From a virus (lineage: Duplodnaviria; Heunggongvirae; Uroviricota; Caudoviricetes): a DNA stretch of 5,101 nucleotides. Every line of letters begins with the position of its first letter. Positions within the stretch are counted from its first letter, which is position 1. The position numbers were made by a program, and so were the translations under genes. Below the pieces are notes generated by a model, which saw nothing but the letters and a program-made list of their open reading frames with translations, had not been told where the DNA came from and searched no databases. This document shows, in pieces, positions 1-5,101 of this stretch. The stretch lies in the IMG/VR virus record IMGVR_UViG_2534681604_000007. The stretch is one strand, 5' to 3'.

Positions 1-1074
1 TCATTTGTCGATTTCAATTTTGTCCCATTCCCGTCCACGGCTGTCCCTATACCGCGCCGCCATTGAATCTGATTTATGCCCGAGAAGACGTTGAGCAAAC
101 TTATCGCCAATCTGGTTCCGGTATAGCCTCGCCGACAGGCTACGCAGTTCATGGAATGTTGGCGGGTCTCCATCAAATGAGAGTCCAGATGCATTTCTCG
201 CCTTTGTAAAATACTTCGATACTGTTTTCGGGGAAAGTGGTTCGTGATGCGTTGATGCAATTATTGTTTCACTGCCGCTGGCCTTCCTGCATTTCTGTAG
301 TGTATCAGCCAATGAGATATTGAGCGCGTCAATCCTTAGCGTCAGCGGAATGGCGAGCTTAGCCCCTGTTTTACCCTGTTCAATGTGAAGATGGTTGTCG
401 TTTATGTCTGACCATTTCATTCTGCACAAATCGCCGACTCTCTGCCCTGTAACGACAGCCAAATCCATCGCCAGTCTTAGCCAGATTGGGAGAGGTTCGG
501 CTGCATGGTAAATCTCGACATACTCATTAGCTGTCAGCCTTGAGCGCCTTACTTCTGACTTTGCTGTGCGGGTTGCTGTTACCGGATTCGTTGCTACATG
601 CCCCTCGGCTATTGCCTCACGAAAAACGTCAACAAGGGTTGACCTGATTAATTTTGCGGAAGCCGCTTTACCTTCTGCTACGTAGGTGTTTAGCATTGCT
701 GCCACCTCTTTCGTTGATATGTCAGCGAGCGGTTTGTCCGGCAATTTTCTTCGGATTGCCCTGATTTTGCTGGCGTAGTCGAGTAGAGTTTTCGGCCTGA
801 TACCCCTCTCGCTGAGGATTGTTTCATATCGGTCAAGCCACGCATGAAGAGTGATTACGTCAGCGCCTTTAATTCTGTCTATCAGTGACTCACGCCTGTT
901 CTCGGATAGTAACTCAATATTGGCCTGAATAGCCTCTGAAACTGCTATCCTTCTGTCTCTGCCTAATCCGAACTCTTTACCCGTCCTTGGGTCTCTGTAG
1001 CAGTAATATCCATTGTTTCTTATATAAAGGTTAGGGGGTAAATCCCGGCGCTCATGACTTCGCCTTCTTCCCAT
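1..1074 (-). CDS. int: Lambda-family tyrosine site-specific integrase (356 aa)
   Basis: Translation starts MGRRRSHERRDLPPNLYIRNNGYYCYRDPRTGKEFGLGRDRR, as I recall for the lambda Int arm-binding N-terminus. Catalytic residues are present in the expected contexts: R in GQRVGDL, K in EQGKTG, H..R in FHELRSLSARLY, H in LLGHKSD, Tyr in AARYRD. ATG at 1074..1072 lies inside xis, as in lambda; TGA at 3..1. Confidence 0.96.
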   Translation of the reverse strand: MGRRRSHERRDLPPNLYIRNNGYYCYRDPRTGKEFGLGRDRRIAVSEAIQANIELLSENRRESLIDRIKGADVITLHAWLDRYETILSERGIRPKTLLDYASKIRAIRRKLPDKPLADISTKEVAAMLNTYVAEGKAASAKLIRSTLVDVFREAIAEGHVATNPVTATRTAKSEVRRSRLTANEYVEIYHAAEPLPIWLRLAMDLAVVTGQRVGDLCRMKWSDINDNHLHIEQGKTGAKLAIPLTLRIDALNISLADTLQKCRKASGSETIIASTHHEPLSPKTVSKYFTKARNASGLSFDGDPPTFHELRSLSARLYRNQIGDKFAQRLLGHKSDSMAARYRDSRGREWDKIEIDK

Positions 1075-1270
1075 TTCTGATCCTCTTCAAAAGACTACCT
1101 GTTACTGGTCGATTTAAGTCAACCTTTACCGCTGATTCGTGGAACAGATACTCTCTTCCATCCTTAACCGGAGGAGGGAATATCCTGCATTCGCGCACCC
1201 ATCGACGAACTGTTTCAAGGCTTCTTGGGCGTCGCTGGCGTGCGTTCCACTCCTGAAGTGTCAAGTACAT
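1052..1270 (-). CDS. xis: Excisionase Xis (72 aa)
   Basis: Translation MYLTLQEWNARQRRPRSLETVRRWVRECRIFPPPVKDGREYLFHESAVKVDLNRPVTG..KRIRNGKKAKS matches lambda Xis as I recall it. Its 3' end overlaps the int start by 23 nt. GGAG lies about 9 nt upstream of the ATG at 1270..1268. Confidence 0.95.
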   Translation of the reverse strand: MYLTLQEWNARQRRPRSLETVRRWVRECRIFPPPVKDGREYLFHESAVKVDLNRPVTGSLLKRIRNGKKAKS

Positions 1271-1282
1271 CGCAAAGTCTCC

Positions 1283-1296
1283 GCAATTACACGCAA
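1283..1296 (-). promoter_or_regulatory. CII-type activator box (TTGC-N6-TTGC) of a pI-like promoter for int
   Basis: Minus strand reads TTGCGTGTAATTGC immediately upstream of the xis ATG (context TTGCGTGTAATTGCGGAGACTTTGCGATGTAC). TTGC-N6-TTGC is the established CII recognition architecture of lambda pRE/pI/paQ. The position just 5' of xis matches where lambda pI sits. Confidence 0.55.
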
Positions 1297-1322
1297 GAAA
1301 AAACCGCCATCAGGCGGTTTGG
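1297..1322 (-). terminator. Candidate intrinsic terminator between the zinc-ribbon gene and pI/xis; the hairpin is symmetric and could also act on the plus strand
   Basis: Minus strand: AAACCGCC-TGAT-GGCGGTTT followed by TTTCTT (8-bp GC-rich stem, 4-nt loop, U-run). Plus strand: AAAAAACCGCCATCAGGCGGTTTGGTGTTCTTT. Confidence 0.5.
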
Positions 1323-1360
1323 TGTTCTTTCAGTTCTTCAATTCGAATATTGGTTACGTC

Positions 1361-1672
1361 TTATTCGATGCGCACTCCTGGTATTTCGCCTTTTGATATT
1401 GCTAAGTCATAAATTTGTGCAGCACTATACCCATCTCGCATCCATGAATCTAAGGCGCGAACAGCCTCGCTACGTTTTTTATTCTCCCTCTCATTTTTGA
1501 TATCAACGAGGACATCAACGCAATTAAGGCAAATGTGGATTTTGTCCTTACATTCGATCATGGCGGCTTTACCATGATTTCCACCACACAGTGAGCATAA
1601 ATCTTCAGGGTCTAGCTGGTATTTCTGTAACGTTAGAGGGTTGAATGTTGAACAGACCATAATCATCTCCAT
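1361..1672 (-). CDS. Hypothetical C4 zinc-ribbon protein (103 aa); sits where lambda carries ea8.5, but homology was not verified
   Basis: Intact 103-codon ORF in operon orientation, TAA at 1363..1361. Cys pairs CSLC ... CLNC plus an extra Cys in IECK suggest a zinc ribbon. Three in-frame ATGs at codons 1, 3 and 5 (MEMIMV) leave the true start ambiguous. Confidence 0.65.
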   Translation of the reverse strand: MEMIMVCSTFNPLTLQKYQLDPEDLCSLCGGNHGKAAMIECKDKIHICLNCVDVLVDIKNERENKKRSEAVRALDSWMRDGYSAAQIYDLAISKGEIPGVRIE

Positions 1673-1697
1673 AAAACAAAACTCGCCGTAGCGAGTT
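1673..1697 (-). terminator. Candidate intrinsic terminator abutting the start of the zinc-ribbon gene
   Basis: Minus strand: AACTCGC-TACG-GCGAGTT followed by TTGTTTT, then directly ATG. 7-bp perfect stem, 4-nt loop, U-rich tail. Confidence 0.45.
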
Positions 1698-1731
1698 CAG
1701 ATAAAAGAAATCCCCGCGAGTGCGAGGATTG

Positions 1732-2016
1732 TTATTCATTGCTGATATTCACCTTTATCGCGAACACCTTTACCGGTTTATCGCCAAAGTGCGGATGTGT
1801 GATTGTCTTCACTTCATATCCGTCATACGGAACATCAATTCTGCGACTGGAATCGTCGCGCTTCGGATATCCCTTTGTGATAATCAGGCGGTTATACTTA
1901 CGGTTAACGAGGCGCTTTTTCCAGTAGTCATTACACAGGCGATACTCTTCCGTTTTCTCTCCGCGAATCATGGCATCGAAGTATTCACTTTTCACAGCAA
2001 GTTGCAGGTTAGCCAT
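1732..2016 (-). CDS. ASCH-like (PUA-fold) domain protein, 94 aa from the ATG
   Basis: ORF MANLQLAVKSEYFDAMIRGEKTEEYRLCNDYWKKRL...; the RGEKTEEYR segment fits the ASCH GxKxxExR signature. GGGGGA lies 7 nt upstream of the ATG at 2016..2014; an in-frame GTG at 2019..2017 is a less likely start. The ATG shares one nucleotide with the TGA of the upstream TraR-like gene (TGATG). Confidence 0.7.
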   Translation of the reverse strand: MANLQLAVKSEYFDAMIRGEKTEEYRLCNDYWKKRLVNRKYNRLIITKGYPKRDDSSRRIDVPYDGYEVKTITHPHFGDKPVKVFAIKVNISNE

Positions 2017-2237
2017 CACTTAATCCCCCTTTGTTTGCGGATAAGCTCCAGATCTTGCTGGCAACTTGCACAAGTCCGACAACCCTGAATGGCCAGTCGT
2101 CTTCGTTCATCTATCGAATCGCCACACTCACAACAATGAGTGGCAGATACAGCCTGGTGGTTCAGGCGGCGCATTTTTATTGCTGTGTTGCGTTGTAATT
2201 CTTCTATTTCTGATGCTGAATCAATGATGTCTGCCAT
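2016..2237 (-). CDS. TraR/DksA-family C4 zinc-finger protein (73 aa), likely an RNA polymerase secondary-channel binder; same size as lambda Orf73
   Basis: Translation MADIIDSASEIEELQRNTAIKMRRLNHQAVSATHCCECGDSIDERRRLAIQGCRTCASCQQDLELIRKQRGIK has an N-terminal acidic helix and CxxC...CxxC spacing typical of TraR (F plasmid) and lambda Orf73. ATG at 2237..2235, TGA at 2018..2016. Confidence 0.85.
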   Translation of the reverse strand: MADIIDSASEIEELQRNTAIKMRRLNHQAVSATHCCECGDSIDERRRLAIQGCRTCASCQQDLELIRKQRGIK

Positions 2238-2290
2238 CTTCCATTAATCCCTGAATTGTTGGTTAATACGCTTGAGGGTGAATGCGAACA

Positions 2291-2313
2291 ATAAAAAAGG
2301 AGCCTGTAGCTCC
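2291..2313 (-). terminator. Candidate intrinsic terminator between the 71-aa ORF and the TraR-like gene
   Basis: Minus strand: GGAGC-TACAG-GCTCC followed by TTTTTTATT. Short 5-bp stem but a strong U-tract. Confidence 0.4.
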
Positions 2314-2335
2314 ATGATGATTTTGTTTTTCATGC

Positions 2336-2551
2336 TCACCGTTCCTTAAAGACGCCGTTTAACATGCCGATCGCCAGGCTTAAATGAGTCGGTGTGAATC
2401 CCATCATCGTTACTGTTTCGTGGTGCTTCTTCAGTACGCTACGGCAAATGTCATCGACGTTTTTATCCGGACACTGCTGTCTGGCTTTTTTGATTTCAGA
2501 ATTAGCCTGACGGGCAATGCTGCGAAGGGTGTTTTCCTGCTGAGGTGTCAT
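2336..2551 (-). CDS. Hypothetical protein (71 aa from ATG at 2551)
   Basis: ORF MTPQQENTLRSIARQANSEIKKARQQCPDKNVDDICRSVLKKHHETVTMMGFTPTHLSLAIGMLNGVFKER. Its ATG overlaps the TGA of the 27-codon small ORF (ATGA). The track's longer 104-aa version starts at a TTG. Weak SD (GGGG about 10 nt upstream), so coupling is probably needed. Confidence 0.5.
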   Translation of the reverse strand: MTPQQENTLRSIARQANSEIKKARQQCPDKNVDDICRSVLKKHHETVTMMGFTPTHLSLAIGMLNGVFKER

Positions 2552-2631
2552 TGAACAAGCCCCATGTCGGCAAGCATAAGCACGCAGAATATGAAGCCCG
2601 CTGCCAGAAAAATGCATTCCGTGGTTGTCAT
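2548..2631 (-). CDS. Unlisted 27-codon small ORF encoding a hydrophobic, probably single-pass membrane peptide (MTTTECIFLAAGFIFCVLMLADMGLVQ)
   Basis: Hand translation of the minus strand: GGAGG-CTGC-ATG at 2631..2629, followed by 26 sense codons and TGA at 2550..2548. The ATG overlaps the methyltransferase TGA (ATGA) and its TGA overlaps the ATG of the 71-aa ORF (ATGA). Codons are common E. coli ones (CTG, GCG, GGC, TTC, GCC, GAC). Below the ORF-track length cutoff. Confidence 0.45.
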   Translation of the reverse strand: MTTTECIFLAAGFIFCVLMLADMGLVQ

Positions 2632-3185
2632 GCAGCCTCCCGACGGGCAAGAATCCTTGAGCCGAACGCCATCAACTCGCCACGATCAACGGTCGTAAAG
2701 TGGCAGTGTGTACGGGGGTATGGGTGCCAGATAATGAGCATCGAGCCTTTATTATTTCCACTGACGGGTTTCCCGGTGAGTGGGTTAATAAATGCCAGTC
2801 GTCCTGCCGTGATGAATCTGACCTCACTGGCGGTTTGTATCGCTTCATGAAACCATCCGACAGATGTGTCAGCAGGCAATAACATTACACATCCCACACT
2901 ACTGAATTTGTTTTCAGTGGCTGCCTTTTTCACAAAAGGGGAAATATTGCTGTATGGTGGATTCAACCAGACATAACCAGAGGCATATCCCATTGCTTCA
3001 GGCCATGAAGTGGTTAATGTGTTCTGCTCCTGTGAGATAAAAAGCCGACATAGTCGGTTTTTTTCGTTGGCTGCAGCATCAAGTTGAAAATCGAACTCTG
3101 CATTCAGCGCAGCAAAAATCTCTGGTGGTGTGCGCCAGCTGTCGCGATGTTCGGCAGGAGTATTGCTTCCGGTGAAATCAGTCAT
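2628..3185 (-). CDS. Phage Dam-family (T1-type) DNA N6-adenine methyltransferase, 185 aa
   Basis: Translation contains the catalytic NPPY tetrapeptide (VWLNPPYSN) and the N-terminal WRTPPEIFAALNAEFDFQLDAAAN segment characteristic of the small phage Dam family. GGGGGG lies 4 nt upstream of the ATG at 3185..3183; TGA at 2630..2628. Confidence 0.88.
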   Translation of the reverse strand: MTDFTGSNTPAEHRDSWRTPPEIFAALNAEFDFQLDAAANEKNRLCRLFISQEQNTLTTSWPEAMGYASGYVWLNPPYSNISPFVKKAATENKFSSVGCVMLLPADTSVGWFHEAIQTASEVRFITAGRLAFINPLTGKPVSGNNKGSMLIIWHPYPRTHCHFTTVDRGELMAFGSRILARREAA

Positions 3186-3336
3186 ACAGCCCCCCGTTTA
3201 TTATTTATCTCCTCAGCCAGCCGCTGTGCTTTCAGTGGATTTCTGATAACAGAAAGGCCGGGAAATACCCAGCCTCGCTTTGTAACGGAGTAGACGAAAG
3301 TGATTGCGCCTACCCGGATATTATCGTGAGGATGCG

Positions 3337-4017
3337 TCATCGCCATTGCTCCCCAAATACAAAACCAATTTCAGCCAGTGCCTCGTCCATTTTTTCGATG
3401 AACTCCGGCACCATCTCGTCAAAACTCGCCATGTACTTTTCATTCCGCTCAATCACGACATAATGCAGGCCTTCACGCTTCATGCGCGGGTCATAGTTGG
3501 CAAAGTACCAGGCATCTTTTCGCGTCACCCACATGCTGTACTGCACCTGGGCCATGTAAGCCGACTTTATGGCCTCGAAACCACCGAGCCGGAACTTCAT
3601 GAAATCCCGGGAGGTAAACGGGCATTTCAGTTCAAGGCCGTTGCCGTCACTGCATAAACCATCGGGAGAGCAGGCGGTGCGCATACTTTCGTCGCGATAG
3701 ATGATCGGGGATTCAGTAACATTCACGCCGGAAGTGAACTCAAAGAGGGCTCTGGCGTCGTTCTCGTACTGTTTTCCCCAGGCCAGCGCCTTAGCGTTAA
3801 CTTCCGGAGCCACACCGGTGCAAACCTCGGCAAGCAGGGTGTGGAAGTAGGACATTTTCATGTCAGGCCATTTCTTTCCGGAGCGGGGTTTTGCTATCAC
3901 ATTGTGAACCTCTGAAGCGGTGATGACGCCGAGCCGTAATTTGTGCCACGCATCATCCCCCTGTTCGACAGCTCTCACGTCGATCCCGGTACGCTGCAGG
4001 ATAATGTCCGGTGTCAT
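3337..4017 (-). CDS. exo: Lambda exonuclease (Red-alpha), 226 aa
   Basis: Translation [65 protein letters not shown]...GEQWR matches lambda Exo as I recall it. ATG overlaps the bet stop (ATGA at 4017..4014). Confidence 0.97.
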
Positions 4018-4799
4018 GCTGCCACCTTCTGCTCAGTGGCTTTCTGTTTCAGGAATCCAAGAGCTTTCACTGCTTCGGCCTGTGTCAGTTCTGACGATGC
4101 TCGAATGTCGCGGCGAAATATCTGGGAACAGAGCGGCAATAAGTCGTCATCCCATGTTTTATCCAGGGCAATCAGCAGAGTGTTAATCTCCTGCATGGTT
4201 TCATCGTTAACCGGAGTGATGTCGCGTTCCGGCTGACGTTCTGCAGTGTATGCGGTATTTTCGACAATGCGCTCGGCTTCATCCTTGTCATAGATACCAG
4301 CAAATCCGAAGGCGAGACGGGCACACTGAATCATGGCTTTATGCCGTAACATCCGTTTGGGATGCGACTGCCACGGCCCCGTGATTTCTCTGCCTTCGCG
4401 GGTTTTGAATGGTTCGCGGCGGCATTCATCCATCCACTCGGTAACGCAGATCGGATGATTGCGGTCCTTGCGGTAAATCCGGCATGTGCAGGATTCATTG
4501 TCCTGCTCAAAGTCCATGCCATCAAACTGCTGGTTTTCATTGATGATACGGGACCAGCCATCAACGCCCACCACCGGAACGATGCCGTTCTGCTTGTCAG
4601 GGAAGGCGTAAATTTCTTTCGTCCACGGATTAAGGCCGTACTGGTTGGCGACGATCAGCAATGCGATGAACTGCGCATCGCTGGCATCACCTTTAAATGC
4701 CGTCTGGCGAAGAGTGGTGATCAGTTCCTGTGGGTCGACAGAATCCATGCCGACGCGTTCAGCCAGCTTCCCAGCCAGCGTTGCGAGTGCTGTACTCAT
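4014..4799 (-). CDS. bet: Single-strand annealing protein Bet (Red-beta), 261 aa
   Basis: Translation [85 protein letters not shown]... matches lambda Bet as I recall it. ATG at 4799..4797 follows the gam TAA (4807..4805) by 5 nt. Confidence 0.97.
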
Positions 4800-4804
4800 C
4801 CGTT

Positions 4805-5101
4805 TTATACCTCTGAATCAATATCAACCTGGTGGTGAGCAATGGTTTCAACCATGTACCGGATGTGTTCTGCCATGCGCTCCTGAAACTCAACATCGTC
4901 ATCAAACGCACGGGTAATGGCTTTTTTGCTGGCCCCGTGGCGTTGTAAATGATCGATGCAGAGTGATTCAAACAGGTGCTGGGGCAGACCTTTTTCCATG
5001 TCGTCTGCCAGTTCTGCCTCTTTCTCTTCACGGGCGATCTGCTGGTAGTGACGCGTCCAGCTCTGAGCCTCAAGACGATCCTGAATGTAATAAGCGTTCA
5101 T
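4805..5101 (-). CDS. gam: Gam, RecBCD inhibitor; 5' end truncated by the window edge (visible part is the 98-aa GamS-equivalent portion)
   Basis: Translation [95 protein letters not shown] matches the C-terminal 98 residues of lambda Gam as I recall it. The reading frame stays open to the last base of the window. Confidence 0.92.

Follow-up and report, generated by a model that had tools for sequence, protein, structure and literature searches.

The exo-xis region influences lysogenisation and prophage induction. Among the early genes of lambdoid phages, Shiga-toxin (Stx) phages included, an ASCH protein gene is very common. RefSeq holds near-identical proteins from prophages of E. coli and Salmonella (e.g., WP_000002094.1) under the name "ASCH domain-containing protein"; they share 85–97% identity with the protein described here, have equal length and occupy the same exo-xis position. 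The ASCH naming of the gene is thus already public, the RefSeq annotation preceding the present analysis. The family is phrog_625, which PHROGs lists without a function, and counterpart genes are present in phages 21, HK022, VT2-Sakai and other Stx phages. Many GenBank records name the gene hypothetical. It goes unmentioned in the exo-xis papers PMC8614690 and PMC10789677, and a literature search for experimental or biochemical work on the phage mini-ASCH family found none.

Among ASCH proteins, YqfB is an N4-acetylcytidine amidohydrolase with the catalytic residues Lys21, Thr24 (the nucleophile), Arg26 and Glu74 (the acid) (PMC9599836). A different set, K21/E24/R26, is the pattern of the TRIP4/EOLA1-like ASCH clade, whose contexts are tied to modified-base systems and in which a Ser/Thr at position 7 is called universal (bioRxiv 10.64898/2026.08.01.741249). 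Human EOLA1 is reported to deacetylate free N4-acetylcytidine, with R26 required for the activity, and mouse EOLA1 is cited in the same preprint as reported inactive in vitro (bioRxiv 10.64898/2026.08.01.741249).

For the gene that precedes the ASCH gene in our sequence, the known systems are lambda Orf73 and TraR of the F plasmid. Lambda Orf73 is a secondary-channel regulator that binds RNA polymerase and, without a partner, reprograms the transcription of the host both in vitro and in lambda (PMC9239242). The end of lambda orf73 is overlapped by ea22 (4 nt), not by an ASCH gene, which lambda lacks; in our sequence the overlapping gene is ASCH.

The window, that is, the whole stretch of DNA analysed, comprises 5,101 nucleotides of the IMG/VR virus record IMGVR_UViG_2534681604_000007. 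Its long ORFs all have minus-strand orientation and make up the left arm of a prophage like lambda, in the order gam, bet, exo, orf60a/DUF1317, Dam, orf61-like, Orf73/TraR, ASCH, orf103, xis and int. The features are:

1-1074, minus strand: int
1052-1270, minus strand: xis
1301-1320: bidirectional terminator-like hairpin in the orf103-xis gap
1361-1672, minus strand: 103-aa ORF (orf103), phrog_3680, with CxxC...CxxC
1679..1698, minus strand: second tandem terminator-like hairpin, directly before the ORF 1672..1361 (pattern scan)
1709..1730, minus strand: first of the two tandem terminator-like hairpins, beginning 2 nt past the ASCH stop (pattern scan)
1732..2016, minus strand: stand-alone gene of an ASCH-fold protein (phrog_625 family), 94 aa plus stop, ATG at 2016-2014 and TAA at 1734-1732
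1939..1962, minus strand: octapeptide GxKxxExR, G19-E-K21-T-E-E24-Y-R26, read from the sequence
2016..2016, minus strand: base shared by the TGA of the TraR-like gene (its last) and the ATG of the ASCH gene (its first), TGATG, from the sequence and the ORF list
2016..2237, minus strand: TraR/DksA-type C4 zinc-finger protein, 73 aa, homologue of lambda Orf73
2024..2031, minus strand: purine-rich, Shine-Dalgarno-like AAGGGGGA, 7 nt 5' of the ASCH ATG and within the final codons of the TraR-like gene
2299..2313, minus strand: terminator-like hairpin 5' of the TraR-like gene (pattern scan)
about 2336-2551, minus strand: orf61-like ORF
2628-3185, minus strand: phage Dam, N6-adenine methyltransferase (Pfam Dam, E 8.8e-57)
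3182-3346, minus strand: DUF1317/orf60a
3337-4017, minus strand: exo
4014-4799, minus strand: bet
4805-5101, minus strand: gam

By megablast, lambda and its relatives match 78% of the window with an identity of about 90%; the uncovered parts include the ASCH gene and Dam. The ASCH gene thus belongs to the exo-xis region, a dispensable part of the leftward early pL operon.

The earlier note had placed an ORF of roughly 95 aa with the signature RGEKTEEYR at 1732–2016, and a 94-aa minus-strand ORF with this motif (residues 18–26, bases 1939–1965) was found there. An in-frame GTG at 2019, one codon 5' of the ATG, would give 95 aa if used. The protein matches phrog_625 with an E-value of 9.5e-50. 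It has 670 relatives at 90% clustering, and the family comprises 776 clusters at 50% identity. The median dN/dS of the gene against 49 homologues is 0.23, showing that purifying selection acts on it. This ORF is a real gene, beyond a chance ORF. The sequence in the window is a minor variant of the RefSeq/phrog_625 gene without substantial difference.

The gene is widespread. It is present in 1,467 of 5,426 complete E. coli genomes, about a quarter. Outside the lambdoid phages, the family has members in virulent phages of Salmonella (Jerseyvirus) and in phages of Ralstonia that belong to the P2-like family Peduoviridae. In E. coli, 99 of 2,083 ASCH matches were plasmid-borne, and the gene is also present in the phage record MH445380, labelled P1, so phage-plasmids are a further vehicle of the module.

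The ASCH fold was suggested by the motif and is supported by several observations. The octapeptide of the helix 1/strand 2 junction is present in the 94-aa protein. In an alignment of 74 diverse members, G19, K21, E24 and R26 show conservation of 90% or more, up to invariance, and 125 of 150 family representatives keep GxKxxExR, most of the others being fragments. Further near-invariant residues are G66 and the family-specific W32, R35, G49-Y50-P51, H74 and F77. The Pfam ASCH model (PF04266, PUA clan) covered only residues 6–29 with 14 bits (E 0.086) and did not reach the gathering threshold of 21.2. Among the 74 diverse members, hits at E < 0.01 favoured ASCH (5) and DUF3850 (2) over other families (1); every one of the seven ASCH and DUF3850 hits was below the Pfam threshold. 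No NCBIfam model matched the protein, and sequence and profile searches of the PDB returned nothing significant. The evidence at the sequence level is weak but consistent, and the motif evidence is strong.

An AlphaFold2 model from the 74-sequence alignment was confident (pLDDT 91.6, pTM 0.80). The top 16 Foldseek matches of this model in the PDB were ASCH-type proteins, with moderate scores (E-values of 0.03–0.4, TM-scores of about 0.5). They comprise 2z0t, 3iuw, 1xne, 5gus, 5guq, 5y6b, 5y6c, 9kyh, 9kyf, 1s04 and 1wk2; PH0355, 3iuw, PF0470, ZmASCH (5gus/5guq/5y6b/5y6c) and YqfB (9kyh/9kyf) are thus among the matches. Two of these, NP_814290 of E. faecalis (3iuw) and PH0355 of P. horikoshii (2z0t), are short ASCH/DUF3850-type proteins from structural genomics; they share 14–18% identity with the phage protein and give no significant match at the sequence level. 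In the viral structure library BFVD, the matches outside the family were named DUF3850, ASCH or activating signal cointegrator. With the near-invariant octapeptide, the fold matches and the RefSeq name in agreement, the assignment of the 94-aa protein as a single ASCH domain of the PUA-like beta-barrel superfamily is supported, with a Pfam score that stays below the threshold.

The protein is probably a basic, stand-alone ASCH pocket protein of the exo-xis region and pL operon, an independent module that acts apart from TraR/Orf73; by analogy with other ASCH proteins, its pocket may accept nucleic acid or a modified base. The gene would be transcribed with its neighbours from pL. Translation would start from its own ribosome-binding site and may be coupled to that of the preceding gene, whatever its identity. 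The pocket would be lined by the conserved K/E/R residues, perhaps together with aromatic and histidine residues, and may take up a flipped-out or modified base of RNA or single-stranded DNA. The protein might just bind the base or might hydrolyse a substituent, as EOLA1 does with N4-acetylcytidine, and would work independently of the TraR/Orf73 protein. It retains the K/E/R residues that make EOLA1 an N4-acetylcytidine deacetylase. The net charge of the protein is +6 (pI 9.5). The family has a median net charge of +5 and is positive in 93% of its members; since the whole family is basic, a polymeric nucleic acid is weakly favoured over a free nucleoside as the ligand. Identification of the ligand would close a gap in what is known about Stx prophages.

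A role against host defence was suggested by recurring neighbours and fusions, namely Lar-type and other zinc ribbons, DUF551 and occasionally Dam. The mini-ASCH family could read or erase a specific modified base (such as m6A, ac4C or a defence-related adduct) in nucleic acid of the host or the phage and so be an early-expressed counter-defence or restriction-alleviation factor, a possible but unlikely function. A link to restriction-modification, in which the protein would read methylated or otherwise modified DNA (sensing N6-methyladenine, for instance, and aiding restriction evasion or alleviation), is also quite unlikely. In the window, the phage Dam gene is found some 600 nt upstream of ASCH, but only 3 of 80 close loci have a Dam gene within 3 kb. 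In a few loci, the gene directly upstream is of the Lar type (restriction alleviation), and seven family representatives have N-terminal zinc-ribbon extensions; these extensions do not match the Lar model. One BFVD match bears the name restriction alleviation protein, but this is an automatic annotation, and PADLOC gave no match for the ASCH, TraR, orf103 or orf61-like proteins.

Dam was rejected as a general associate of ASCH loci on the same count of 3 in 80. The zinc-ribbon-like extensions occur in the distant members P0143, P0166, P0171, P0173, P0196 and P0248 and in BFVD A0A8S5UN54. They are N-terminal, 50–100 aa long and have two CxxC pairs; none is TraR-like or detectably Lar-like. Among the other longer family members are read-through fusions with upstream genes of the Ea22/DUF551 type.

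An amidohydrolase would use the pocket for a small molecule: like YqfB and EOLA1, the protein would serve salvage by removing the acyl group from free N4-acetylcytidine or from a similar modified nucleoside. YqfB has the same fold, is among the top structural matches and has G19, K21 and R26 in the same register as the phage protein, two of these being catalytic residues of YqfB (PMC9599836). This register comes from an hhalign comparison of the family with YqfB, in which the motif alone was aligned (E 0.12), in register with G19/K21/T24/R26; the residue numbering of the YqfB sequence used agrees with the literature. The full set of Lys21, Thr24, Arg26 and Glu74 was not found. The phage protein has K21 and R26, but Glu takes the place of the nucleophile Thr24 of YqfB, and no counterpart of Glu74 could be aligned. 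YqfB is also longer (103 aa versus 94 aa) and acidic (net charge −7), in contrast to the basic phage family.

The TRIP4/EOLA1-like clade has the same K21/E24/R26 version of the octapeptide, and EOLA1 is likewise a stand-alone domain. The reported deacetylation of ac4C by EOLA1 counts in favour of an amidohydrolase. EOLA1 is much larger (about 158 aa versus 94 aa). Against this activity, the Ser/Thr at position 7 is replaced by Ala, in a column that is variable in the family; the comparison with the clade was made by residues. The inactivity cited for mouse EOLA1 in vitro also speaks against this activity, as does the lack of an acetyltransferase or salvage gene near ASCH in the loci examined. 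Altogether, such a small-molecule amidohydrolase is improbable.

A single-strand-specific ribonuclease like ZmASCH of Zymomonas is very improbable: ZmASCH is among the structural matches and the phage protein is basic, but ZmASCH has about 145 aa with extra elements and only 13–17% identity, and the YqfB-type ASCH proteins tested showed no nuclease activity (PMC9599836).

The remaining explanation concerns the neighbouring gene rather than the pocket. The earlier note had identified this gene as TraR-like, which holds. The protein matches Pfam zf-dskA_traR (PF01258) with 33.4 bits (cut-off 24.9), has an intact C4 finger, matches phrog_54 and falls just below the cut-off of TIGR02419 (53.5 versus 59.7). 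It is identical to the lambda orf73 reading frame in 66 of 73 residues (90%). The 1-nt overlap of stop and start is also real. The minus strand reads ...ATT AAG TGATGG CT... across the junction, the upstream TGA is at 2018–2016 and base 2016 is common to TGA and ATG. From this overlap, the note had proposed that TraR/Orf73 and ASCH are a functional pair of a polymerase modulator and a nucleic-acid binder, with co-expression enforced by the junction. Co-expression is plausible, because both genes lie within one leftward early operon. The partnership did not survive the comparison of loci.

Overlaps are common in the window. They occur at 5 of its 10 gene junctions: int/xis (23 nt), TraR/ASCH (1 nt), DUF1317/Dam (4 nt), exo/DUF1317 (10 nt) and bet/exo (4 nt). 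The TraR/ASCH overlap is unremarkable, because half of the gene junctions overlap. The TraR-ASCH segment is flanked by terminator-like hairpins (2299..2313 on one side, the tandem pair at 1679–1730 on the other), and this bracketing within the pL operon would suit a functional pair. A pattern scan of the region 1000–3400 found 11 terminator-like sites, compared with 1.9 expected from shuffles. In 74 of 168 loci, ASCH is followed by the same hairpin as the one at 1709..1730.

The neighbourhood was compared across loci found with single proteins as queries; the contig scan contributed 12 loci and two scans with divergent representatives 2 loci each. Of the 80 closest IMG/VR ASCH loci (at least 89% identical), 27 have TraR upstream, 21 have the gene of an unknown protein of 86 aa there, and about 30 have a gene of the DUF551/Ea22-like or DUF4752 kind. 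All 27 TraR loci have the identical TGATG geometry, and the same junction, searched as a 240-nt sequence, is present in 620 of the 5,426 complete E. coli genomes; these two counts speak for a pair. After dereplication of the close loci plus added loci, 121 combinations of ASCH with an upstream gene remained, and TraR was upstream in only 12 of them. DUF551/Ea22-like genes (47) and the 86-aa gene (35) were more frequent, DUF4752 had 8, and the rest included Lar-like and DUF5131 genes. Seen from TraR, the next gene is ASCH in 30 of the 80 closest loci and an Ea22-like gene in 28. At a query coverage of 80% or more, which also holds for the junction count, 1,467 E. coli genomes have ASCH and 3,293 have TraR, so that the junction is missing in about 58% of the ASCH-carrying and about 81% of the TraR-carrying genomes. 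In E. coli MB10, TraR and ASCH are separated by DUF551 and Ea22-like genes, and in Stx2a_F451 by six genes. TraR is not next to the more distant ASCH homologues of HK022, of a Jerseyvirus and of Ralstonia phage RSA1. The comparison of loci thus found no consistent adjacency across related and distant phages, and the partnership is unsupported, because TraR-ASCH adjacency is not conserved across loci.

The junction itself leads to the same result. Homology among the loci begins exactly at the ASCH start codon, from (A/G)TGGCTAACCTGCAA onward. Unrelated upstream genes end 1 nt (TGATG or TAATG) or 8 nt (GTGGCTAA) inside the ASCH start, with overlaps of 1–8 nt. At least four of them overlap ASCH, namely TraR, the gene of the 86-aa protein, DUF551/Ea22-like and DUF4752. 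Each supplies a Shine-Dalgarno sequence, a GGAGG-like stretch, in its own final codons; GGAGG, another purine-rich stretch, lies at the same distance in loci with other upstream genes as AAGGGGGA does in the TraR-like gene. Because homology begins at the ASCH start and unrelated genes overlap it equally, the overlap has no special meaning, and TraR-ASCH represents a common mosaic arrangement, one of several. The ASCH gene is an independent mosaic module, and its overlap with the upstream gene reflects the module boundary and tight operon packing.

The proteins do not point to a pair either. Orf73 acts on RNA polymerase alone (PMC9239242), and in lambda its gene overlaps ea22 instead. Pfam scans of 30 longer ASCH family members showed Ea22-ASCH read-through, one weak reverse-transcriptase-like hit and generic zinc ribbons, and none of the fusion proteins checked had a TraR-type finger. 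With all this, a functional pair is hardly credible. The finding for this gene adds little, since the ASCH name is already in RefSeq and the TraR partnership does not hold.

Genes containing DUF551 are the commonest ASCH neighbours and more recurrent than TraR (e.g., IMG/VR loci L003, L155 and L009). In lambdoid phages they lie upstream of ASCH, which they overlap by 8 nt (GTGGCTAA, GTG start), and their end, ...PQEVNRG, is conserved. In Jerseyviruses (locus L097), the DUF551 genes are downstream of ASCH. The family member P0193 (364 aa) combines a reverse-transcriptase-like N-terminal region (weak Pfam RVT_1 hit, E 0.007) with an ASCH domain that lacks the initial strand and helix; an assembly chimera or a truncated fusion is the probable explanation.

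The 103-aa ORF weakly resembles the N-terminal zinc-binding domain of ClpX (Pfam E 0.014; NCBIfam ClpX E 0.0018), and phrog_3680 was found in 10 of the 80 close ASCH loci. Dam is placed between orf60a/DUF1317 and the orf61-like gene, where lambda has orf63 (DUF1382). In a comparison of the orf61-like protein (2336–2554) with lambda (locus L171, 2907–3123), residues 1–25 and 22–72 match in different frames. Because the two pieces sit in different frames, the window and lambda differ by a frameshift in orf61, and the frame in the window runs about 11 codons past the end of the annotated 61-aa orf61 of lambda.
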